64,000 nucleotides of DNA from an uncultured Gammaproteobacteria bacterium (GCA_964522435.1 CAZFUL010000001.1:117075-181074), one strand, 5' to 3'. Shown: positions 2,240-49,463, counted from the first letter of the stretch. Program-made: numbers and translations. The notes: generated from the letters alone by a model not told the origin.

Positions 2240-3610
2240 ATGCAAATTGGTCCGGTGTTTATTGATATGTCCTATCTGCAAGGTCTTTTGGATCGTGGCT
2301 TGTTTGGTATATTAGGCGAATTATTTATTCTTGGAGGATTTTTACTCTTTGTTTGGGTGTGTTTCTTTTTTGCTTTATCCTATTATCAAGAATATCGAGA
2401 AAATAAATTTACTGCAGATTGGCGATGGGTGGTATTAGCCGTAGACATTCCTCCGTTAAATGTACAAACACCCAAAGCCATTGAACAAATGTTTGCGCAC
2501 TTGGCGGGGGCATTTGATAAACCTGGAATAAAAGATAAGTTTCGTGGGGGCTATAAACAGCGCTGGTTTAGTTTTGAAATTATTAGTATCGAAGGCTATA
2601 TTCAATTTGTGATTCGCACAGAGGCTGCGTTTCAAAAATTGGTAGAAGCGGCATTATATGCCCAGTATCCTGATGCCGAAATTACAGAAGTAGAAGATTA
2701 TGTACAAGGATTACCAGATACCTTTCCAGATAAAACCTATGACATGTGGGCAGCTGACTTTGGTTTAGCCGAAAACGATGCCTTTCCTATCCGCAGTTAT
2801 CATGATTTTGAACATAGTATTTCTAAAGATACGGTGTTAAAAGACCCCATGGGAGCATTTTTAGAAAGTTTTAGCCATATTGGTCCAGGAGAACAAATGT
2901 GGTTTCAGATTATGATTGAGCCAATTGATAATGGCTGGAAAGATAAAGCAATTAAAAAAATTAAAGAACTTATTGGAGAAAAAGAAAAAGCAAAAACCAG
3001 TCCGCTTCAAAAATTATTAGATGTGCCTATTCAGACCGTTGGCTTATTAAGTGATCAGATTTACGGCGCTGTGGAGCGTGGTGGGGCAAAAGAAGAAAAA
3101 GGAGATAAAAATGAATTGCGCTATCTTACCCCAGGACAAAGTAAATTAGTAGAAGCCATGGAACAAAAAATTTCCATGATCGGGTTTAAAACAAAAATTC
3201 GCGGCGTGTATATTGCGCGTAAAGAAGTCTTTAAGCCAGAACGTGGCGTGCCTGCCCTTATTGGGGCAATGAATCAGTTTAATATTCCTACCTCCAATTC
3301 AATTGTGCCAAAATCAGGTGCGTCAAGTAATGAAAAAAAGACCCTGTTTATGATGGCCTATAAAAAGCGAAAATTAAAAATTGGTGCAAATCCATTTGTC
3401 TTGAATGTGGAAGAATTAGCAACCATTTGGCATTTCCCCATGTCTCATGTAAAAACGCCTATGGTGCAAAAAGTGGAAACCAAACAATCAGAGCCTCCTA
3501 TTGGTTTACCTATTGAGCGTGTTGATGCCCCAATTATTGCGGAAAAAAAGAAAAAAACAGAAAGTAGCACCGATGCCTTTGGCTACTCAAGTGATATGCA
3601 TTTTGGATAG
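2240..3610 (+). CDS. Hypothetical membrane-anchored protein (N-terminal TM helices, large soluble domain)
   Basis: 456-aa ORF with host-like AT-rich codon usage. No family recognised from sequence alone. Confidence 0.6.
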   Translation: MQIGPVFIDMSYLQGLLDRGLFGILGELFILGGFLLFVWVCFFFALSYYQEYRENKFTADWRWVVLAVDIPPLNVQTPKAIEQMFAHLAGAFDKPGIKDKFRGGYKQRWFSFEIISIEGYIQFVIRTEAAFQKLVEAALYAQYPDAEITEVEDYVQGLPDTFPDKTYDMWAADFGLAENDAFPIRSYHDFEHSISKDTVLKDPMGAFLESFSHIGPGEQMWFQIMIEPIDNGWKDKAIKKIKELIGEKEKAKTSPLQKLLDVPIQTVGLLSDQIYGAVERGGAKEEKGDKNELRYLTPGQSKLVEAMEQKISMIGFKTKIRGVYIARKEVFKPERGVPALIGAMNQFNIPTSNSIVPKSGASSNEKKTLFMMAYKKRKLKIGANPFVLNVEELATIWHFPMSHVKTPMVQKVETKQSEPPIGLPIERVDAPIIAEKKKKTESSTDAFGYSSDMHFG

Positions 3611-3616
3611 TCAATA

Positions 3617-3695
3617 AAAAAAACCGTTCCACTCTCCCTCGAAAATACTCGTATAGATAAAGTACTTTCGGTGGCGTTGGAACGGTTTTTTTGTT
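3617..3695 (+). terminator. Composite hairpin terminator (long stem aaccgttcca...ggaacggtt followed by T-run)
   Basis: Inverted repeat enclosing an inner hairpin, followed by tttttttg. Confidence 0.45.
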
Positions 3696-3722
3696 CACTG
3701 CCCCCGTTGTTTTTGTCGTCGG

Positions 3723-3908
3723 TCACTTGCGGCGTTTGGGCATCGTGTTTAAGGCAAATGCGCCAGAAATCACGAATAACGTGAGAGAAATATAGGCAAT
3801 CCACTCGGCCAGCCGAGGGAAGCCCAGGCCTTTGGTCGGCAGTGACAGCCAGACCGTAGCGAAGGAAAGCGCAAATGCTTTTGCGCTGATTCTGTTGATA
3901 GTTTCCAT
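3723..3908 (-). CDS. Small 2-TM membrane protein (61 aa) encoded in a G+C-rich islet
   Basis: Strong SD ggagga 6 nt upstream of the ATG on the minus strand. Local GC is about 50% against about 35% in the flanks. Hydrophobic profile with a basic C-terminus (MPKRRK). Confidence 0.45.
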   Translation of the reverse strand: METINRISAKAFALSFATVWLSLPTKGLGFPRLAEWIAYISLTLFVISGAFALNTMPKRRK

Positions 3909-4013
3909 CGATATCCTCCATCCTGTTGGGGGTGTAGGGCTATGCTAATAGCTCTTTTGCTTCTTGTCAACTGCTTGATTTTTTCCTCATGTTTCGCTAG
4001 TATCAATGCTATT

Positions 4014-4988
4014 ATGTGGGTAAACAATATTTTAAAACAAAAAAAACATATTCTTGCCTTGTCACCTATGGCAGACATGACGGATTCTTCGTTTTGCCAA
4101 ATGGTACGCCAAATTGGGGGAGCGGATGTCGTATTTAGAGAAATGGTAAGTAGCGAAGCCATTGTCCGAGAAAATGCCAAAACAATTGGCATGACTGATT
4201 TTGTGGAAGCGGAGCGTCCTATTGTGCAGCAAATTTTTGGCTCTGATCCACTCATTATGGCAAAAGCCGCTGAGATTGTGATGCAGCATGCCGCGCCAGA
4301 GGGGATTGATTTAAACATGGGTTGTCCGGTATATAAAATTACGAGCAATTTTAATGGTTGTGCTTTGATGAAAGATCCAGAACGGGCTGCCGCAATTATT
4401 AAAGAAATTAAACAAGCCATTGGTGATACGCCAGTTTCGGTAAAAATTCGTTTAGGGTGGAGCGATCCAGATGATTTTAAAAAATTTATCCCGGTTATAG
4501 AACAAGCGGGTGCAAGCTTAATTACCGTGCATGGCCGCACCAAAGCGCAAGGCTATAGTGGTAAAAGTGATTGGCAACGGATTGCACAAGCAAAAAAAAT
4601 TGCCACTGTGCCGTTATTAGCGAATGGCGATATTCATGAATGGCATCAGGTTACTGAGGCGCTTGATATTACGGGAGCTGATGGGGTACTCATTGCACGA
4701 GGTGCCTTGGGGAATCCTTGGTTTTTTCAACAATATCTCAAACAAGAGGGGAGTATTTCATTAGAAGAAAGAAAACGAGTGGTACTTGCCCATGCGCAGT
4801 TGCATGTACAACAATATGGAGAGCGAGGCATGGTAACCTTTCGTAAACATTTGGCCTGGTATTTTAAAACAAGTAAAATCGGATTTGAAATTCCAGGTAT
4901 TAAAGAATGGCGGATGAGAGCGATGCAGGTGGAGACCTTGGTAGAATTGCAAGGCTTGTTGCAAGAGCTCGTAGGCGAATCACTATAG
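4014..4988 (+). CDS. dus: tRNA-dihydrouridine synthase (Dus family)
   Basis: LSPMADMTD motif (LAPMAGxTD), FMN-binding TIM-barrel motifs and NMGCP. The real start is probably ATG 4014 or 4068 rather than 3942. Confidence 0.85.
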   Translation: MWVNNILKQKKHILALSPMADMTDSSFCQMVRQIGGADVVFREMVSSEAIVRENAKTIGMTDFVEAERPIVQQIFGSDPLIMAKAAEIVMQHAAPEGIDLNMGCPVYKITSNFNGCALMKDPERAAAIIKEIKQAIGDTPVSVKIRLGWSDPDDFKKFIPVIEQAGASLITVHGRTKAQGYSGKSDWQRIAQAKKIATVPLLANGDIHEWHQVTEALDITGADGVLIARGALGNPWFFQQYLKQEGSISLEERKRVVLAHAQLHVQQYGERGMVTFRKHLAWYFKTSKIGFEIPGIKEWRMRAMQVETLVELQGLLQELVGESL

Positions 4989-5051
4989 GGGGTTCTCTAC
5001 TTTATTAGTCTTTTTTTACTTATTTTAGCAAAATTTAATAATATATATCCC

Positions 5052-5079
5052 AAAAGCCTCTTGACAAAAGGCTTTTTTT
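5052..5079 (+). terminator. Hairpin aaaagcc(11 nt)ggctttt plus T-run after dus
   Basis: Seen in sequence. It overlaps the promoter below. Confidence 0.5.
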
Positions 5080-5089
5080 GTGCTATTAT
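5061..5089 (+). promoter_or_regulatory. Sigma70-like promoter TTGACA-17-TATTAT
   Basis: Perfect -35 TTGACA (5061-5066), 17-nt spacer and -10 TATTAT (5084-5089). It reads into GC-rich islet B and the ORF at 5790. Confidence 0.55.
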
Positions 5090-5255
5090 GTTTCGTTATC
5101 GTCGTATTTCATAACAGCAGCTATTGCCTGTTATTATGAAAACCGACGAGTCGTGTGTTACGACTTACGGTCCAGCGGCATTCCTGCCGCGAGCTGCTAT
5201 AACTGACCCAAGCAGTGTAAATAAATGGGTCCCCGTGGCATGAAGGAGAATACCC

Positions 5256-5516
5256 ATGCCCAATCCCGGTGAAACCCCCAGCACCCCTGCCACCACCTCC
5301 ATGGTGGCGCCCGTCCAGCCGGCCGCCGAGGTGCAGCCGGATCTGGCGTCTGTCGCCCCGGCCGAAGAGCCCCCCACCGTCACGGCGGTGGCCTCTGATA
5401 CCGACGGTAACGGGCTCACCGACCGCGTCGTCATGACCGGGGGGGGGATCATCCCCCTGGGAATCGCGGGAGGGGGGTCCCGTCCCGATCGTCCCCGGAT
5501 GCGCGGTAGCAACTAG
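5256..5516 (+). CDS. Possible small Pro/Ala/Gly-rich protein in a very GC-rich islet (uncertain coding)
   Basis: AAGGAG lies 8 nt upstream of the ATG. The region is over 70% GC and has long ORFs in several frames, so the coding call is weak. Confidence 0.2.
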   Translation: MPNPGETPSTPATTSMVAPVQPAAEVQPDLASVAPAEEPPTVTAVASDTDGNGLTDRVVMTGGGIIPLGIAGGGSRPDRPRMRGSN

Positions 5517-5789
5517 CCCCTCGGCGGGACCTCTTTATATGTACGCGTTCTGCGTATAAAGAGTTCATCTTCTGAACGCAGCACCTGGCCGGTCGCGCTT
5601 TTATAAGCGACCCTGCACAAGCGCTTGACTGTCATCCTCTGACATTCGCGCGACCGGCCCCACAAAAAAGTACATCAATAGTGGTGTGCTTTTTTGTTTT
5701 TATGAGGAATACACTGATATGTAACCAAATTGAATTAAAGGAAAAATAATGATAGTCTAACAAATGAAATTGTATTTAATCGTATTATT

Positions 5790-7181
5790 ATGTTTGCAGA
5801 GTTTAGACCAGAATATTTTTCTATTACAGATATTCATCAATTACCTGCTCAGGAACAGCAACGTCATATTGAATATTATTTAGAAACGAATATACGAGAA
5901 CTTATTCAATCTCGAGGAATACTTTCTGATGAAAGTTATGTGTTTTTAATGGATAGCTTAATGGAAAGGGGGGTATTGGATGCGGTTTTCCGTGATGGAG
6001 AAGATGCTCTGAATCCTCGAGATATACAATATTTAAGTCGATCTGAAAAAGGAAAAGAACTGCTCTTACATTTTTTTTCTAAGATTATGGTGTTGTTTAC
6101 TCCTGAACAATTAATTGATCTGTTAAAACAACAACAAGCCGATGAACAACTTATAGGAACTATTATTGAAAAAGTTCGTTCTCTTGAAAAGAGAAATGAG
6201 TTGGTTCAAGAAGTCTATACAGAATTTTCTAGGGAACCACAGACAGATATATTGGGAATAATAGTCAGCCTATACGAAAAAGGGATATTAACGGCTCGTC
6301 CTATATTTTGGGAAGAACATTCAGAAGATTTATTGCGGTTTAGTGTTCGTACGGGGAAGTCTTTTTCATTAACCTCTTTAGGTTATGTGTATGATACAAG
6401 CCAAAATCGTGAAAGACTTATTGCGGAAATACAAACAGAAAAGACCATTGCTAAAATTGTTATTAATAATGAAGCCGTTTCTGTATTGGAAGTTCTATTT
6501 ATTGCTCCTATAGATCAACAAGATGTCCCTCTTTCGACGGGGAATAATTTTGAAAATCCTAAGGCAGAGTTATATACAAAAGATAGCCCGGAACCAGGAT
6601 CTTCTTTTTGTGTTGGAGGAGCAAATACGTCAGAAGACATAAACAGTTTAGAGAAAATTAACAGTATTGCTATTGATGAAATCGAACGAGTAATGAAATC
6701 ACGAGGTGATCTTGATATCCAAGCGGGAGATTTAAAATTTGCTATTGCTGATAGTGGGTATCTTGGTGCTGAAGATAGCCTTAGGGAAACATTATTAGCT
6801 GATAATGAAACAGTTCAAACATTAGGGACAAATCATCAAACATTAGCTGTAGATTTATTTATTTTTCAGCGCTTAGCATATTTACTTCCTTCTGGTGAAT
6901 CAAAATCTCATATTGATTGTGTGTATGCTGGTGTTCCACTTCGTATTGATTGTAAACTAAGAACGCCAAGTCCTATTGATTCCCCTTTTGGAGATGAGAC
7001 TAGAGGACGTCAAGATATTATTGTAACAAACAAGAAAACAGGAAAATCAATATTTTTTTCTGAGCTACATCCATATATGATGTATCGATATGGGTTTTAT
7101 GAAGGAAAAGGTTGTTCCTATCGTTTAAATCCTAAAGATGTATTCGAGTTATTAAAAACCGATTTAGAAGAAAAAAAATAG
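5790..7181 (+). CDS. Hypothetical protein (463 aa), no recognisable domain
   Basis: Long ATG ORF with host-like composition. No family motifs recognised. Confidence 0.6.
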   Translation: MFAEFRPEYFSITDIHQLPAQEQQRHIEYYLETNIRELIQSRGILSDESYVFLMDSLMERGVLDAVFRDGEDALNPRDIQYLSRSEKGKELLLHFFSKIMVLFTPEQLIDLLKQQQADEQLIGTIIEKVRSLEKRNELVQEVYTEFSREPQTDILGIIVSLYEKGILTARPIFWEEHSEDLLRFSVRTGKSFSLTSLGYVYDTSQNRERLIAEIQTEKTIAKIVINNEAVSVLEVLFIAPIDQQDVPLSTGNNFENPKAELYTKDSPEPGSSFCVGGANTSEDINSLEKINSIAIDEIERVMKSRGDLDIQAGDLKFAIADSGYLGAEDSLRETLLADNETVQTLGTNHQTLAVDLFIFQRLAYLLPSGESKSHIDCVYAGVPLRIDCKLRTPSPIDSPFGDETRGRQDIIVTNKKTGKSIFFSELHPYMMYRYGFYEGKGCSYRLNPKDVFELLKTDLEEKK

Positions 7182-7234
7182 ATATATAGACTGTGTTGAA
7201 TAAGCGCTGAGTATATGCTAGGCTACCCCTAGCT

Positions 7235-9031
7235 ATGACCGATACAGAACGTATTAAAGAGGCAATGGATATCGTCGGCTTTATTGGTGAATATGTGCCC
7301 TTAAAATCTTCTGGCATCCACCATAAAGGGCGCTGTCCATTTCATTCTGAAAAATCACCCTCATTTATGGTAAGCCGAGAGCGAAATTCTTGGCATTGTT
7401 TTGGTTGTAATAAAGGGGGCGATATTTTTAGCTTTGTCCAAGAAATTGAAGGCATGGAATTTGTTGAGGCCTTAACGTTTTTAGCAAATCGTGCAGGTAT
7501 TGAATTAACCGGTAAACGAGCTACGGGAGAAGGTGGCACACAAAAAAATAGATTAAAAGAGATCATGACTGATGCGAGCAAATTTTATCATCATATTTTA
7601 GTCAACATGTCAGCAGCAAAAGCGGCAAGAGACTATGTAGCAACACGCGGCGTGAGTGACCAAAGTATTGTTGACTGGCGCATAGGGTTTGTGCCAGATC
7701 AATGGGATTTACTCACCAAATATTTATTAAAAAAAGGACATGCGATTGATGACCTTGTTGCCGCGGGGCTTACTATTAAACGGGATAATGCCAATCCGCA
7801 AAATTATAAAGGATTTTATGATCGTTTTCGTGGACGCATTATGTTTCCTATTAACGACGTCCATGGATATACCGTTGGTTTTACTGGACGAGTGCTTGTG
7901 GAAACAGAAAAAAGTGGGGGAAAGTATGTAAATACGCCTCAAACACTGTTATATGATAAATCACTGGTAGTATTTGGTTTGGATAAAGCAAAAAAAGTCA
8001 TTAAAGAAAAAAATGTGGCGGTTATTGTAGAAGGACAAATGGATGTGATAGCTTGCCACCAAGCAGGAATGAAGAACGTCGTGGCAAGTAGTGGCACGGC
8101 GCTTACAGAACAGCAGGTAGGCTTATTAAAACGCTATAGTGATAACATGGCTATGGCCTTTGATATGGATGCGGCGGGTCAACGAGCTGCAAAGCGGGGG
8201 ATTGATATTGCCATTGAACAAGGCTGTAGTGTGCGAGTGATTCGTATTCCTGATGGAAAAGGAAAAGATGCGGATGAGTGTATTCAAAAAAACAAAGAGG
8301 TATGGTTTGCCTCGGTGGAGAATGCACAAGATATTATGCAATGGTATTTGGATAAAGCGCTGAGCAAGGTAACCAATATTCATGATCCAAAACAAAAGCA
8401 GCTATTGGCAAATGAATTACTTCCAGATATTGCCCGGATTCCCTTTGCCGTAGAACAAGATCATTGGCTACAACGAGTGGCGCAATTGTTGCAGGTAGAG
8501 GTAGCGGTGTTACGAGAAGACATGAAACGGTATCCGGTAAAACCAGCGCCACAAACAGCCCCACAACAACCAGAGACGCCGCAACCCAAGGCGGCTGTTA
8601 CGGCGGTAAAAAAACCAGTCGCGCTCTCTCGTAAAGAACAATTGCAAGAACGTCTGTATATGTTGTTATTACGATTCACGGATTTACCTCAGATAGATAC
8701 CTTTTTTTCGTATCATAAGGCGCTTGAACAGGGGGCGTATAGCGCTCTTTACGAATATATAAAAAGCAGGTATACTCTTGGGAGTGCCAGTAGCGCTTTT
8801 GTAGGAGATATGCCTCTTTCGTTAGAGGTGCTTTTACTTAAAGCAGATGCTGAATTTGGTCATTTAATGCAAGACCAAGCGAGTATCGAGGCGAAAGGCT
8901 TATTAGAGGCTATTTACAACGAATGGAAAAAAGAACGACGCCAATTTCTTGAACGAGAAATTCAGCAAGCAGAACAGCAGGGCAACAGTGCCCAATTGGC
9001 CGCATTACTTCAAGAAGTACAACAATTATAA
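7235..9031 (+). CDS. dnaG: DNA primase DnaG
   Basis: CHC2 zinc finger ([13 protein letters not shown]...[11 protein letters not shown]) and a Toprim region ([11 protein letters not shown]). Followed by rpoD. Confidence 0.9.
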
Positions 9032-10517: not shown

Positions 10518-11648
10518 ATGGGATTATTTCAAAAACAAGAGGGCTATTTAGGAATTGATATTGGTGCGCAAGGCATGAAGCTTGTTGAGTTACGAAAAAC
10601 AAAAAGTCGTCCACAATTGTGGACCTATGCCCTGTTGCATCATCCGATAGATATTCATGAATTAGCTCCTGCTGGGGCTAGTATGGTGCCTCCTGCCGAT
10701 GGGGCGTTTATGTCTGAAGGACAGAAGCAACCGGTATCGCCCATAACTGCAGATGATCCCCGCATTGATGAATACGCGCAGTTGCTGAAAGAATTGGTAA
10801 AAAAATCTCAGGCAACCAGTCGGCGGGCAACGGCCAGTTTACCGGTTTCACAAGTGTTTCATGCGGTGATTACCTTGCCGACGGTCGATCTAAAAGAATT
10901 AGATCATCATGTACGCGCAAAAGTAAAAAAAATGTTGCCGCAATCTATTGATGATATGCAGGTGGTGCACCAGTTGATTCCGAATAAAGAAGAAGATAAA
11001 AAACCAAAATTTATGCGGGTCCTCGTGACTGCCGCACCCAAACCCTTAGTCTCCTTTTATAGCGCGATCTTTCAAAAAGCAGGCTTACAATTAGAAGAGC
11101 TTGAAACAGAAGCCTTTGCTCTCGAGCGATCGTTGGTAGGACATGATCAGTCCACCATTATGCTCGTGGATATTGGTGCAGAGCGGACAAACTTTTTTGT
11201 GGTAGACCAAGGCTTACCCATTACGCATAGAAGTATTGCGCTTGGGGGAGATGCGATTGATAAAGAATTAAGTGCGCGCTTGGGAATTGATATTGCGCTC
11301 GTGAATCAAATGAAAATAGATTTGTCTCGTTCACCCAAAACGGGAAATAGTGCCGCAGTATTTACGAATCTGTTTGACCCTATTGTAAAAGAGATAGAAT
11401 ATAGTGTGGATTTGTTTATTCACCAAACAGGAAATGAAGGAAAACGCTTAGAAAAAATTATTCTAACCGGTGGCGCCGCCTTATTTCCCCCAATTATTGA
11501 TGTGATCCGCCAATCCTTTTCTGTGAATGTCTTTATTGGCGATCCTTGGGCCCGGGTCGTGTATCAACCTGGCTTACGGCAGGTACTTGACGATATCGGT
11601 GCCCGTATGGCGGTAAGTATTGGCCTTGCAATGAGAAATATAGTATAA
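10518..11648 (+). CDS. pilM: Type IV pilus assembly ATPase-like protein PilM (actin-like fold)
   Basis: N-terminal LGIDIG...KLVEL actin/HSP70-like phosphate-1 motif. Lies in a pilin/PilD neighbourhood. Confidence 0.7.
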   Translation: MGLFQKQEGYLGIDIGAQGMKLVELRKTKSRPQLWTYALLHHPIDIHELAPAGASMVPPADGAFMSEGQKQPVSPITADDPRIDEYAQLLKELVKKSQATSRRATASLPVSQVFHAVITLPTVDLKELDHHVRAKVKKMLPQSIDDMQVVHQLIPNKEEDKKPKFMRVLVTAAPKPLVSFYSAIFQKAGLQLEELETEAFALERSLVGHDQSTIMLVDIGAERTNFFVVDQGLPITHRSIALGGDAIDKELSARLGIDIALVNQMKIDLSRSPKTGNSAAVFTNLFDPIVKEIEYSVDLFIHQTGNEGKRLEKIILTGGAALFPPIIDVIRQSFSVNVFIGDPWARVVYQPGLRQVLDDIGARMAVSIGLAMRNIV

Positions 11649-28131: not shown

Positions 28132-28164
28132 AAAACCCTATACCGTTCTGGTACAGGGTTTTTG
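28132..28164 (+). terminator. Rho-independent terminator (ccctgtacc.../ggtacaggg + T-run)
   Basis: aaaaaccctataccgttctggtacagggttttt. Confidence 0.55.
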
Positions 28165-28238
28165 AATTGCTCCGACGGGGGTGGGGAACTGCCGAAGCAA
28201 TTCATCCGCGTCGTCGGGGCGGAACTCCTTGTTTGTCG

Positions 28239-28760
28239 TCAGGGGGTCCCTGTATTGTACGGGTCAAGGAAGATGAACCGTTCTTCTTTGGGATAGTACC
28301 CTGGGTATACCGTCCAGACCGTGAAGTGCCATTGCTGGTTGCGCTCTTTGCGCATCCGAACTTTCATGGTGAGTTGGGTAGTTTTTGGAGCCAGGATGAG
28401 CTCCTTGGGGAGGACGGGAATCCCGGATGACGGCCTTCTCAGCTGCTGTTGCAAGTATGGCTGGGTGGGGACACGGGTCACCCAGCCAATATGGCGGGGA
28501 AGACTCAGGGTGATCGAATGATCTTCTTTACCCCGTTCAATTGCGCTGCGCAGGGCCGCGCCCAAGTGTGCAGCAACCTCTTGGTCATCGACGCAGGCTT
28601 GCAGGTTTGGCCAGGCAGAAATATTTCCGGCCAGTGGAGCGCCTGCCAGACGGAAATGGTCAGTTTGTACCTGGACTATGGTCTCGTGGGGAAAGATGAC
28701 CTTGACCACCGGTGCGCCGTCCGGTCCCATAGGAAGGATCAGATATTTGGCGAAAAGCAT
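28239..28760 (-). CDS. Hypothetical protein (173 aa) in GC-rich islet C
   Basis: RBS aaggaa upstream of the ATG on the minus strand. GC about 55%. The + strand ORFs here are shadow ORFs. Confidence 0.45.
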   Translation of the reverse strand: MLFAKYLILPMGPDGAPVVKVIFPHETIVQVQTDHFRLAGAPLAGNISAWPNLQACVDDQEVAAHLGAALRSAIERGKEDHSITLSLPRHIGWVTRVPTQPYLQQQLRRPSSGIPVLPKELILAPKTTQLTMKVRMRKERNQQWHFTVWTVYPGYYPKEERFIFLDPYNTGTP

Positions 28761-28772
28761 GAACGTTTCCTT

Positions 28773-29375
28773 TCAGTTGTTGTGTTTTTTGTTCATGTGG
28801 CGAATTGCGATTGCCACACTGCCGTTGCCCATCACCCCGATGAGGATGGGGTGTACGAGGGATACCAGTTGTTGCTCTGGCTGCCAGTGGATGACCAGGT
28901 TCGTAGTCATGATCATATACGACACCACCGCAATGTACCAGGGCAAGATGTTTTCTTTGTTGCCTTTGAGTACACCGAGGACGGTGGGAATGAACGATAG
29001 CACATATACTGCTTGAAGCAGCAAGTTGGCCATTACATCATCACCGCTGGTACGCCAGTAGTAGACAATGACGCCGGCGATTGCCAGAATCATCCATTCT
29101 GTTGGCCCGATTTTGCTAAAGCGCTTGTTGAACGCTGCGTAGCCAAGGATCAAAAGCGATCCGAGGCATGCTGCGCCAGTTGCTGCCCAGCGGCTCAGGT
29201 CACCATCTACCACTTTGAAATAGGTGACTGAGTTGACCACATTGACGCTGCCCCAAATTGCCCAGGTTGCGGCGTTTGGGGTGATATTGCCCTTGATCAC
29301 GTAGTACAGGTACATGCTGAGCAAGAGTAGCACACCCGACATTGAAATGAGTGAAAGAATATCAATGAGCGCCAT
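28773..29375 (-). CDS. Hypothetical polytopic membrane protein (about 200 aa) in GC-rich islet C
   Basis: RBS aaggag 6 nt upstream of the internal ATG (MALIDIL...). The longer ORF to 29429 was rejected as an upstream extension. Confidence 0.45.
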   Translation of the reverse strand: MALIDILSLISMSGVLLLLSMYLYYVIKGNITPNAATWAIWGSVNVVNSVTYFKVVDGDLSRWAATGAACLGSLLILGYAAFNKRFSKIGPTEWMILAIAGVIVYYWRTSGDDVMANLLLQAVYVLSFIPTVLGVLKGNKENILPWYIAVVSYMIMTTNLVIHWQPEQQLVSLVHPILIGVMGNGSVAIAIRHMNKKHNN

Positions 29376-29427
29376 TGCAGGCTCCTTTGTCTGACGTTTT
29401 TCTTGGCAGAGACTAGAATAGAACATC

Positions 29428-30288
29428 ATGATTTTAATCAGTTGTCAATATAGCGTATGTATGGGAAAATATTCGTATATGCGTGATACCACACACAACA
29501 GAGCATGGGTACGAAACATCGGTATTGTCTGTTTTATTTTTATCCAATTCTTGGGAATTGCCATTAATCTTATAAAGCAGCAAGATTGTTATAAACAAGA
29601 GCAGTCCATAGAGCAACAGTTTTCCAGCAGGCAAGAAGGAGATGTTCGTGTATTAAAAGAAGATATGCTCAATCATTTTGATTGTGGCATGTCGTTTGGC
29701 GTGCCTGCGCCTATTGTCTATGTCAAAGATGATACAGGCAGTGTTGGGGTATTGCCTCAAAGTATTGTGTTTAATATTGTGCTCTATGCTGCCGTTTTTT
29801 TTGCGGTTATGCGTGGGTATGCCTTGTTCAAACAACAGCGCTATACGCGTGTAGGTGTGGAAAGCATATTGTGTATTGTGGGATTGTTTATTGCTGCTAT
29901 ATTATTGCAATTATCGTTTCGGTATAGTGGGCTTATGTATACCGGAGGGCCTGTAATACGATTTCCTTCGTTGATACCATCAACACAGTCGTTTGTGGAT
30001 ATAGGGGCTGAGTATGTGTTTTATGTTCTTACTATGCTTGCCGCAGGATTTTTTTCTGTATATACCTGGTATGGTTATGCGGCAATTATTTTTTTATATC
30101 TTGTATTATTTGGAATCGTTGTATACCGGATACAAAAAATATATATACCACTCTCATATAAAAAATTGTTGACCTGGGGAATTGTTGGATTTATTTTTTT
30201 CTATCTTTTTATGTCGTATAGTGCGTTTATTACGCAAGGGGTGGTTGATCTGAATTGTTTACATAACAATAGTGGTTGTGACGGCTAG
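29428..30288 (+). CDS. Hypothetical polytopic membrane protein
   Basis: ATG ORF with multiple hydrophobic segments. Start uncertain. Confidence 0.5.
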   Translation: MILISCQYSVCMGKYSYMRDTTHNRAWVRNIGIVCFIFIQFLGIAINLIKQQDCYKQEQSIEQQFSSRQEGDVRVLKEDMLNHFDCGMSFGVPAPIVYVKDDTGSVGVLPQSIVFNIVLYAAVFFAVMRGYALFKQQRYTRVGVESILCIVGLFIAAILLQLSFRYSGLMYTGGPVIRFPSLIPSTQSFVDIGAEYVFYVLTMLAAGFFSVYTWYGYAAIIFLYLVLFGIVVYRIQKIYIPLSYKKLLTWGIVGFIFFYLFMSYSAFITQGVVDLNCLHNNSGCDG

Positions 30289-31916: not shown

Positions 31917-32010
31917 AATCATCGTCGTCGCGTGGACCTCCGATAACATTCGTTAGGTATTGTTATCGTTGAGGTCCGCTATATCGCCACATTGGGCGAT
32001 ATTTTTTTTC
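31917..32010 (+). ncRNA. Candidate small structured RNA, unit 2 (structure conserved with sequence changes)
   Basis: aatcatcgtcgt box, then hairpin ggacctccgataac...gttatcgttgaggtcc, then atatcgcc-cacatt-gggcgatat plus T8. Confidence 0.4.
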
Positions 32011-32134
32011 CGTACATTATGGGAAGAGAAGGACAGACGATAGCAATATCTGATAGTAGCCTCTTCTCATAATCAGTAGCAATGCTGTTGCTGAACGTGG
32101 GAAGAGTAACGCTGTTGTATAGGAGGACGTTGTC

Positions 32135-32950
32135 ATGGCACCATACTTTTCTTGGCTGGTAGCGTCTGGAGTTATTGAACGAACAATGCCCGATGGAGGG
32201 GTGGTTCATGTTTCCACCTTGCCTGACGCAGCGGTGGCAGCTGCGGGCTGGTGGGGGACGGAAAATCTGCGTCCCGAGTATTGCTTGAGCGGCGGCTGCT
32301 TGTTTGATGCGCGTTGGCAGCTGCAGTTTCCTGCACAAAACAAAGGACACCAAGGCGCTGTTCGTACCTTGTCCTTGCCGCGTGAGCGCGATGATGCGTA
32401 TGCGCGTTTGAAGAAAGGACAAACGCCACTTGCCCTGCACCTGCCGAAAGGGCCTGGCGTGTATCAGCAGACGCTCATTCGCTGGCAAGCAGCGGTGTTT
32501 CGTCGCTTGCAGCCCACACAGATTCTGTACCATCTTCCGACCGATGAATATCGTGTCTACATTCAAGAGATGGAACAACATCTGGGCTATGCCGTTCCTG
32601 CTGCCTACACACAGCTTGACCAGCTCGCTGTCTCTATTCGTGCGCTTATGGTGCGGGAGTTTGGGGCTGCTCTCATGGCACGTGTTCGCTTCGTGCGTCC
32701 TATGCACACGCATGGAGTGAAAGATACGACACAGTCCTACCTGCATCCCTACTTGTTTCCGGAGTTGTATGGGATCACTCCTGCCAATACCGTTGGTGTG
32801 GAAGATCTTGTTGAACTCCGTCTTGCCTACGAAGCATGGCGCATGCGCGGACACCAGATTTCGGTGTACGCAGCTGCCCTTGCCCTGCCTCCTCCCTACG
32901 CAGATAAAACGCTGCGGCCTGGGGAATTCACGACCGTTGAGCTGATGTGA
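32135..32950 (+). CDS. Hypothetical protein (271 aa) in GC-rich islet D, strong SD
   Basis: taggagga lies 8 nt upstream of the ATG. GC is well above the flanks. The antisense ORF 31979-32854 is judged a shadow. Confidence 0.5.
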   Translation: MAPYFSWLVASGVIERTMPDGGVVHVSTLPDAAVAAAGWWGTENLRPEYCLSGGCLFDARWQLQFPAQNKGHQGAVRTLSLPRERDDAYARLKKGQTPLALHLPKGPGVYQQTLIRWQAAVFRRLQPTQILYHLPTDEYRVYIQEMEQHLGYAVPAAYTQLDQLAVSIRALMVREFGAALMARVRFVRPMHTHGVKDTTQSYLHPYLFPELYGITPANTVGVEDLVELRLAYEAWRMRGHQISVYAAALALPPPYADKTLRPGEFTTVELM

Positions 32951-33011
32951 TATACACCTCAGCTCCGGTCACCATCCCATAAATAGTTATTTTTTATTAT
33001 ACTATATCCAT

Positions 33012-49070: not shown

Positions 49071-49463
49071 GTGCTGAATAAAATCCTGCTCATTGAAGAC
49101 GACATCGAGACAGGGATCTTGATCCGGGGGGGGCTGCAGGGCGTAGAGGATGAAAACTGGGAACCCCTGTATGACGTGTTCTACGCAACCAACCTGAACG
49201 ATGCACGGTTGCGGCTCGACAAAGGGGACATCGACCTCTTGATATCCGACACCTGCGTCGATAGCAAGAACCGGCCTGATGCCCACGTGCTGATCGAGGA
49301 GGTACGGCAACGCTACCCCAATATGCCGATTCTCGGAATGTCTAGTTCTGACTTCTACCGAGATATCATGTTGGAGGCGGGATGCAACCGCTTCTACACC
49401 AAATCACCCCGTGACCTGCAGTTCGCAGGGCTGCTGGAATTAGTGCAGGAGCTTCTGCCTTGA
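49071..49463 (+). CDS. Stand-alone CheY-like receiver domain protein, GTG start, in GC-rich islet F
   Basis: gaggagg lies 7 nt before the GTG. ILLIEDD, phospho-acceptor D in DLLISD, and T/K positions are conserved. GC is about 55% against AT-rich flanks. Confidence 0.6.
   Translation: MLNKILLIEDDIETGILIRGGLQGVEDENWEPLYDVFYATNLNDARLRLDKGDIDLLISDTCVDSKNRPDAHVLIEEVRQRYPNMPILGMSSSDFYRDIMLEAGCNRFYTKSPRDLQFAGLLELVQELLP

Follow-up and report, generated by a model that had tools for sequence, protein, structure and literature searches.

In AT-rich genomes, GC-rich islands mark structured RNA genes, which has served as a screening principle. Hairpins are also found in peptide-modification operons, where they set the stoichiometry between precursor and enzyme. 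The Patescibacteria, commonly referred to as the candidate phyla radiation (CPR), carry hundreds of genomic islands and transferred genes (PMC12455944). This work deals with a GC-rich islet at positions 5100-5700 of a 64,000-nt stretch of DNA deposited under an uncultured Gammaproteobacteria bacterium (GCA_964522435.1 CAZFUL010000001.1:117075-181074). We will refer to this whole stretch as “the window”, and positions given without a contig name are counted from its first letter. The islet is situated between dusB and dnaG. On balance, we favor its reading as an autonomous, horizontally acquired orphan mini-gene of foreign composition, lodged in a variable hotspot between both genes.

Composition, reading frame and chromosomal setting

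The mean GC content of the window is 40.5%, as in a low-GC bacterial chromosome, and the islet is its strongest GC anomaly in windows of 261 nt: the peak reaches a GC fraction of 0.728 vs. a mean of 0.405 (standard deviation 0.054), and the highest value elsewhere is 0.605. The preliminary description of this DNA, made by a model, gave the whole 0.6-kb segment a GC content above 70%; this figure applies to a core of about 0.3 kb only (5240-5530, 70-71%), as 5100-5700 taken together has 59.4%. The maxima are 73 and 77% for windows of 200 and 100 nt, respectively, while the leader and the 3' block at either side of the core have 48 and 50%. A three-segment maximum-likelihood fit places the change points at 5143-5663, delimiting an island of 64% GC between flanks of 29 and 24%, with a sharp right edge at 5660-5665. 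The islet hence deviates from the composition of its host, as horizontally acquired islets do.

The GC-rich core coincides almost exactly with an 86-codon, Pro/Ala/Gly/Thr-rich orphan open reading frame (ORF) on the plus strand, sm86 (5256-5516). The SD-led, Pro/Ala/Gly-rich ORF pointed out earlier (SD, Shine-Dalgarno sequence) was found as described: AAGGAG at 5243-5248 lies 7 nt upstream of the ATG at 5256, which is the first possible start, since an in-frame TGA at 5241 rules out a longer frame. GC at the first, second and third codon positions (GC1, GC2, GC3) of sm86 is 0.70, 0.62 and 0.82, respectively (periodicity p = 0.017), vs. a GC3 of 0.19-0.36 in host genes, and the order GC3 > GC1 > GC2 is the one expected for coding DNA from a high-GC genome. 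Start codon, ribosome-binding site, open frame and codon periodicity are altogether those of a putative protein-coding gene. Regarding predicted folding, the sm86 core presents no structure beyond shuffles (z = +0.25), while its flanks are clearly structured: z = -3.5 for the leader (0 of 200 shuffles as stable) and z = -6.7 for the block of about 190 nt after the stop codon. For the whole transcript on the plus strand, z is -7.0, with none of 20 shuffles as stable, and the strong structure reported previously is thus beyond chance. The nested, partly mutually exclusive inverted repeats are located in these untranslated flanks, not in the >70% GC core. Because the SD stands at optimal spacing, the codon positions follow the above-mentioned order and the excess of RNA structure is confined to the flanks, the core can be regarded as coding-like, and sm86 is plausibly translated.

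The gene order in the window is secD, secF, a conserved hypothetical gene (2240-3610), dusB (3942-4988), the islet, an orphan ORF (ORF5790, 5790-7181), dnaG (7235-9031), rpoD and pilM. A metagenome scan with DusB as query provided 80 related loci, and the absence of the islet genes was judged over 82 related loci. The closest sequences found were L001, a 2.8-kb metagenome contig from NCBI, and L002, a contig of a metagenome-assembled genome titled Candidatus Magasanikiibacteriota. They are 94% identical to each other, and their dusB is 81% identical to that of the window as DNA and 87-88% as protein; the window's own proteins are NCBI singletons. Judging from these relatives, the organism is placed in the Magasanikbacteria, within the Parcubacteria group of Patescibacteria/CPR. 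The order secF-hypothetical-dusB-dnaG-rpoD is kept in four related contigs (L004, L025, L026 and L059), with a dusB-dnaG gap of just 60-110 nt, and the gap measures 500 nt in L036 and L037. In the window, the same interval (4989-7234) holds 2.2 kb with two orphans of opposite composition, the GC-rich islet and the AT-rich ORF5790, and since dusB directly adjoins dnaG in the syntenic relatives, both are regarded as a 2.2-kb insertion. No homologue of sm86 or ORF5790 was found in any of the 82 loci, and the islet is absent from the syntenic position in relatives, another feature of horizontally acquired islets. Furthermore, 60 relatives carry widely different genes downstream of dusB, which makes this junction a variable hotspot.

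A precedent for this reading exists in the lineage. Six related contigs (L043 and L045-L049; dusB protein 62-64% identical) carry downstream of dusB a GC3-rich gene (0.78-0.90 vs. 0.4 in the host), encoding a Cys-rich lipoprotein of 260-320 amino acids with a lipoprotein signal peptide. Of the four proteins scanned with Pfam, two pass the cut-off for Dicty_CTDC repeats, another is just below it, and that of L048 gives no match. Upstream of the gene lie tandem promoters and a structured leader that is conserved, and downstream come a perfect stem rich in GC and a bidirectional terminator (11270-11565 and 12354-12500 in L049). The leader, of about 130 nt, contains the stem CTAGCTTTGGGAAT/ATTCCCATAGCTAG, in which L043 shows a compensatory change; this leader has no Rfam match, is absent from the window, and may represent an undescribed cis-regulatory RNA. 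The 3' untranslated region (UTR) is 90-97% identical among these contigs, vs. 81-88% for dusB. GC3-rich genes also occur beside dusB in L017/L029 and L014. Homology between sm86 and the L043-L049 lipoproteins was considered and discarded, as blastp, blastx and a profile search against six-frame translations all gave E > 0.3; the resemblance is one of architecture without homology.

Expression signals, the 3' module and neighboring genes

The islet is preceded by the predicted intrinsic terminator of dusB (5052-5079, plus strand; hairpin 5052-5076), an inverted repeat (I5) of the form AAAAGCCT..AGGCTTTT followed by a T run, whose loop holds the -35 hexamer of a sigma-70-type promoter-like site on the same strand, a detail that the preliminary description does not mention. 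This site, TTGACA-17-TATTAT at 5061-5089, had been proposed in the preliminary description as a consensus promoter; it agrees at 11 of 12 positions, possesses an extended -10 TG, and is the best of the region in a promoter scan that found 10 sites vs. 1.6 expected from shuffles. Transcription would start at about 5096 and open with a 5' leader of about 160 nt (5096-5255, plus strand, 48% GC), with predicted hairpins at 5100-5148, 5149-5165, 5175-5190 and about 5195-5240, and including the inverted repeat I1. The predicted fold leaves the SD region mostly unpaired, and no homologue of the leader was found.

After sm86, the 3' block begins with the hairpin at 5531-5563 that had already been indicated, 15 nt past the stop codon and with a 13-bp stem and a 7-nt loop, and goes on with a small hairpin at about 5563-5577. 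A perfect 12-bp stem then closes a predicted multibranch structure with two small hairpins inside (5587-5659); its 12-nt inverted repeat, GGCCGGTCGCGC/GCGCGACCGGCC, occupies 5587-5598 and 5648-5659, with arms 49 nt apart, so that the repeat described before (5587-5658, 48-nt spacing) stands with coordinates shifted by one. The last element is a bidirectional-looking intrinsic terminator (5662-5705), formed by a 16-bp A/U-rich stem (5662-5697), a 4-nt loop and TTTTTAT; a stable stem-loop with an immediate U tract is what defines an intrinsic terminator, and this predicted one coincides with the right edge of the island, where GC drops sharply. All these elements are given for the plus strand.

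This 3' module is shared with the closest relatives. In L001 and L002, window positions 5583-5703 reappear as their reverse complement directly after dusB, with the terminator hairpin (which there abuts dusB), the inner hairpin and the long stem all represented. In these contigs, the arms of the long stem are GCCAGTCGCGC/GCGCGACTGGC, and one of its pairs (alignment columns 70/134) has changed in a compensatory way from G:C to A:T; the inner hairpin is kept, and the hairpin at the position of 5531-5563 has a different stem sequence. The module follows in both contigs a different orphan ORF, convergent on dusB, for which no homologues were found. Because this copy is inverted behind an unrelated ORF, the same module serves different cargo ORFs in opposite orientations, and it seems to be native to the lineage. 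A covariance model derived from the window, L001 and L002 gave 106-139 bits in these three sources only; neither the rest of the window nor 0.7 Mb of related loci yielded a further copy, the other matches being generic terminators of 33 bits or less. Exact-pattern scans returned only L002 from the genome collection, and nothing from the metagenome and viral collections. With two independent sequences and covariation on one pair, a conserved RNA structure is suggested but not strongly supported. As a separate observation, L001 (at position 2808) and L002 (at position 1) end at the same base inside the cargo ORF beside dusB, in independent assemblies of organisms 6% diverged, which points to a repeat, to hypervariability among strains or to a dropout of coverage there.

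In the favored reading, a near-consensus sigma-70 promoter overlapping the dusB terminator would start a transcript at about 5096, in which a hairpin-rich leader of 160 nt precedes an exposed SD and the 86-codon ORF. The product would be a small, probably disordered, Pro/Ala/Gly-rich peptide with a single DxDGNG loop-like motif. The three stem-loop elements and the strong terminator would close the unit, probably stabilizing its 3' end and insulating it from ORF5790 and dnaG. For the ORF part (GC3 of 0.82), the most likely origin is horizontal acquisition or a swap from a high-GC source. The unit is regarded as autonomous because it has its own promoter, its own terminator and a sharp compositional boundary on the right.

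The next ORF does start at 5790, as announced. ORF5790 (5790-7181, plus strand; 463 amino acids, GC3 of 0.19) is the AT-rich component of the insertion, with a promoter-like site TTGAAT-17-TAGTCT at 5730-5758 (plus strand). This site is below the threshold of the scan and was proposed by comparison with L036 and with the dnaG promoter-like site of the window, TTGAAT-17-TAGGCT at 7196-7224, itself homologous to that of L036 (about 11150-11180). TTGAAT-17-TAG(T/G)CT may thus be a promoter variant typical of the lineage, with an unusual -10 hexamer. As ORF5790 and dnaG have promoter-like sites of their own, neither needs the islet promoter; its identification as the ancestral dnaG promoter was discarded, since dnaG keeps its conserved site. 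These downstream promoter-like sites, together with the terminator at 5662-5705, speak for the islet as an independent unit rather than a leader. The idea of a foreign insertion into a leader consequently survives in part: the islet looks foreign or accessory, being absent where dusB abuts dnaG and far from the host in composition, but it was not placed into a leader, as ORF5790 is itself inserted.

No family was found for ORF5790 in Pfam, NCBIfam, PADLOC, PHROGs or a PDB profile search, and its AlphaFold (AF2) model is unusable (pLDDT 36). Its single homologue, P0007 (L083, 5282-6691; 35% identity), is full-length once an in-frame TAA is read through. L083 is a low-GC Logan contig, where the genes next to P0007 encode a SagB-YcaO fusion, which is a thiazole/oxazole peptide maturase, together with an HExxH protein and a membrane protein. 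No GC-rich ORF stands directly upstream of P0007, and the window contains neither YcaO nor any other of these L083 neighbors. L083 also presents, 1.2-1.7 kb downstream of P0007, small GC-rich genes that have promoters and terminators of their own, and further upstream a gene whose translation resembles a type IV coupling protein, with no family match. A ribosomally synthesized and post-translationally modified peptide (RiPP) precursor encoded by sm86 next to a maturase encoded by ORF5790 was also considered, and this precursor-plus-enzyme reading is not supported, as ORF5790 matches no maturase family and SagB-YcaO is found only at L083.

Other stretches deserve a brief mention. A second GC-elevated islet (about 53% GC; 3723-3908, minus strand), situated between the conserved hypothetical gene and dusB, carries an SD-led gene for a small protein of 61 amino acids with two hydrophobic, transmembrane-like stretches. 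The corresponding spacer holds an unrelated small membrane protein gene in L001 (660-1322) and is a mere 209 nt in L002 (1486-1695); as its contents differ in the three sequences, this spacer is an indel hotspot as well. The conserved hypothetical gene (2240-3610), present in most related loci at 47-65% identity, matches the phage family phrog_5156 (E = 1e-17). Further GC-elevated stretches of the window (28143-29429, 31979-32978 and 49071-49463; 53-58% GC) contain orphan ORFs with a GC3 of 0.6-0.7 and no Pfam family, save for a weak receiver-domain match at 49071-49463; long ORFs overlap on both strands at 32.0-33.0 kb.

Weighing the alternative readings

Several observations weigh against the mini-gene reading. 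Concerning conservation, selection or expression, sm86 is a singleton: it matched only itself in an index of 5.8 billion proteins, and the contig index had no record exactly matching sm86, P0001 or ORF5790. Its length is not significant on its own, since ORFs of at least 86 codons arise in 5% of shuffles at 71% GC, and it is overlapped by ORFs of 115 codons on the minus strand and 55 codons on the plus strand. Its product is of low complexity (Pro, Ala, Gly, Thr, Val), with no signal peptide, complete domain or homologue, from which it could follow that sm86 is a gene fragment or is untranslated. The minus strand of the whole unit folds at least as well as the plus strand (z = -9.0), and RNA structure alone therefore does not single out the transcribed strand. 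As to mobility, no integrase, transposase or tRNA target was found between 4989 and 7234, no donor was identified, and no clear target-site duplication was seen. The sole candidate direct repeat, the 10-nt TATTATGTTT, brackets the islet at 5084-5093 and 5786-5795; its left copy overlaps the -10 hexamer and its right copy includes the start codon of ORF5790, and it may be a trace of microhomology or target duplication, or chance (rough p about 0.05). A phage or plasmid source was dropped, as blastn in “distant” mode gave no match and viral contigs matched neither the 3' pattern nor sm86 nor ORF5790.

The similarities of sm86 are also of interest in this sense. An exhaustive HMMER search of 1.84 billion representatives matched only repeat proteins, over residues about 34-74 (APAEEPPTVTAVASDTDGNGLTDRVVMTG), which hold a loop-like motif, DxDGNGLTD, such as occurs in calcium-binding loops. 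The matches belong to two kinds, MucBP-like adhesin repeats and FG-GAP/VCBS-like “GDFNGNGLTD” repeats; the 5-20 repeats present in the targets inflate their E-values. No calcium-binding repeat domain (FG-GAP/VCBS, MucBP, dockerin/TSP3-like) was matched in Pfam at E <= 0.01, and Pfam, NCBIfam, PHROG and PADLOC assigned sm86 to no family. A GroEL apical-domain fragment, the best PDB match (E = 0.13), was rejected: the similarity to Escherichia coli GroEL (E about 0.002-0.009) was gone when the same region was compared with Mycobacterium tuberculosis GroEL2. A lasso peptide and a double-glycine bacteriocin were rejected as well, because sm86 obeys neither the ring-position rule nor the leader rule. 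An example of a tryptic peptide of sm86, as read from the sequence, is VVMTGGGIIPLGIAGGGSR.

Given these similarities, sm86 might just as well be a piece captured from a surface-protein gene, i.e., a Pro/Thr-rich linker with one DxDGNG repeat from a high-GC donor, decaying and functionless between a resident promoter and terminator. The only resemblances are indeed to single repeat units of giant repeat proteins, the islet contains an internal 39-nt imperfect duplication (D2) typical of slippage-prone linkers, and sm86 is a family-less singleton with neither a complete domain nor a signal peptide. However, the frame is intact, has a good SD and starts just past an in-frame stop, GC-rich core and ORF are nearly coextensive, the promoter is near-consensus, and the GC3 is not ameliorated, which suggests recent arrival or maintenance; we regard such a remnant as unlikely, although it deserves attention. 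A function of the transcript as RNA is likewise unlikely, and a little more so. The ORF would then be incidental to a structured non-coding RNA or long leader, or 5583-5705 would act as a 3'-derived small RNA, protein-binding or stabilizing element. The significant structure of leader and 3' block is in line with this, as are the orphan status and dubious composition of the ORF, the conservation of the 3' module, with its compensatory change, while the upstream ORF was replaced, and the analogous 3' UTR of the L043-L049 clade, more conserved than dusB. The structured leader or non-coding RNA proposed in the preliminary description is thus borne out for the flanks, but not for the >70% GC core, which combines a lack of excess structure with codon periodicity and an SD. 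The Rfam/Infernal check proposed there gave no family: at gathering thresholds the whole window contains three tRNAs only, and at E <= 10 over 3400-6000 the best scores were 17-24 bits vs. thresholds of 35-100, none of them in the plus-strand GC core. Known RNA families (riboswitch, T-box, leader, sRNA, RNase P, tmRNA, 6S, etc.) were discarded on these scores, and ARAGORN found no tmRNA. Furthermore, the 3' module is known from two independent sequences with one covarying pair, its covariance model recovers no other copy in 0.7 Mb of related loci, and no conserved promoter lies immediately upstream of it.

Three further explanations are less probable than the previous ones. It is rather improbable that the dusB flank of Magasanikbacteria is an expression site for swapped cargo genes, the islet being a minimal-cargo cassette, and that the GC3 of 0.8-0.9 of such cargo, in a genome of 40% GC, is actively maintained by selection or biased gene conversion instead of being a relic of transfer; both statements are judged jointly. 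In such a site, recombination would swap ORFs between untranslated modules conserved in the lineage, with a promoter and leader on one side and a GC-rich stem-loop and bidirectional terminator on the other. A leader or attenuator of ORF5790, modeled on the hairpins of peptide-modification operons, with the strong promoter driving ORF5790, alternative hairpins and the terminator gating read-through and sm86 as leader or precursor peptide, is in our analysis very improbable. It is true that the islet directly precedes ORF5790 with the same orientation, that some stems exclude one another, and that the only ORF5790 homologue adjoins a SagB-YcaO maturase; yet ORF5790 has its own promoter-like site, and the module of L001/L002 stands behind another ORF in the opposite orientation, so that it would belong to the 3' end of the cargo and not to the 5' end of ORF5790. 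Neither the L083 homologue, with no GC-rich ORF directly upstream, nor the window, devoid of YcaO and the other L083 neighbors, nor sm86, which fits neither lasso nor double-glycine rules, agrees with such a role. Least credible of all is an assembly chimera, raised earlier as a possible refutation, in which high-GC reads of another organism would have been misjoined into a low-GC contig. The extreme GC contrast, the singleton core and the contig breaks of L001 and L002 inside the cargo ORF could be taken in its favor, but it needs two joins within 0.5 kb, both returning to the same syntenic chromosome. Moreover, composition changes gradually through leader and 3' block, with host-style signals, the 3' quarter of the island has its homologue at the same locus, beside dusB, in two independent assemblies of relatives, and the ORF is framed exactly by SD/ATG and stop codon.

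Comparison with known systems

If the mini-gene reading is true, the islet represents one more acquisition of a small orphan in a streamlined CPR genome and a marker of a recombination-prone site beside dusB; it also calls for caution, since a GC spike in an AT-rich genome need not be an RNA gene. The finding would gain weight if the 3' module, or the recurrent GC3-rich cargo beside dusB, proved to be a dedicated system for cassette exchange and expression, or if the GC-rich DNA were traced to the host organisms of these episymbionts. The recurrent arrangement of conserved flanks and GC3-rich cargo beside dusB is the only aspect which might be of greater interest.

Like the GC-island RNA genes of AT-rich genomes, the islet is a GC spike with strong hairpins in a low-GC stretch of intergenic appearance; unlike them, its GC peak is no more structured than shuffles, has a coding signature and belongs to no Rfam family. 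Integron cassettes with their attC sites also come to mind, as a variable ORF is followed by a conserved inverted repeat of about 70 nt, and the same 3' element occurs after different ORFs. However, as read from the sequence, 5517-5705 contains no GTTRRRY/RYYYAAC core sites, the islet has its own promoter, no integrase is seen near the locus and no cassette array in the window, where the 3' element is single; this element is furthermore followed by a terminator, and is inverted in relatives. An integron cassette was discarded on the core sites and on the integrase and array.

The lipoprotein cassettes of L043 and L045-L049 occupy the same position as the islet and share its layout, with an AT-rich promoter and structured leader, a GC3-rich ORF, a GC-rich perfect stem and a terminator, although there is no homology in leader, ORF or 3' module, and their ORFs encode 260-320 amino acids with lipoprotein signal peptides. 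The closest counterparts are the islets and ORFans (orphan ORFs) of Patescibacteria/CPR (PMC12455944). The islet differs from them in its very small size (one 86-codon ORF), in lacking mobility genes, tRNA, integrase and an identifiable donor, in its host-like flanking expression signals and in a 3' module shared with relatives. It has in common with them a deviant composition, the absence from syntenic relatives, the location at a synteny breakpoint and a hypothetical product. Thus, it looks like an ordinary kind of accessory islet, a small ORFan, and not like a new RNA or regulatory device.

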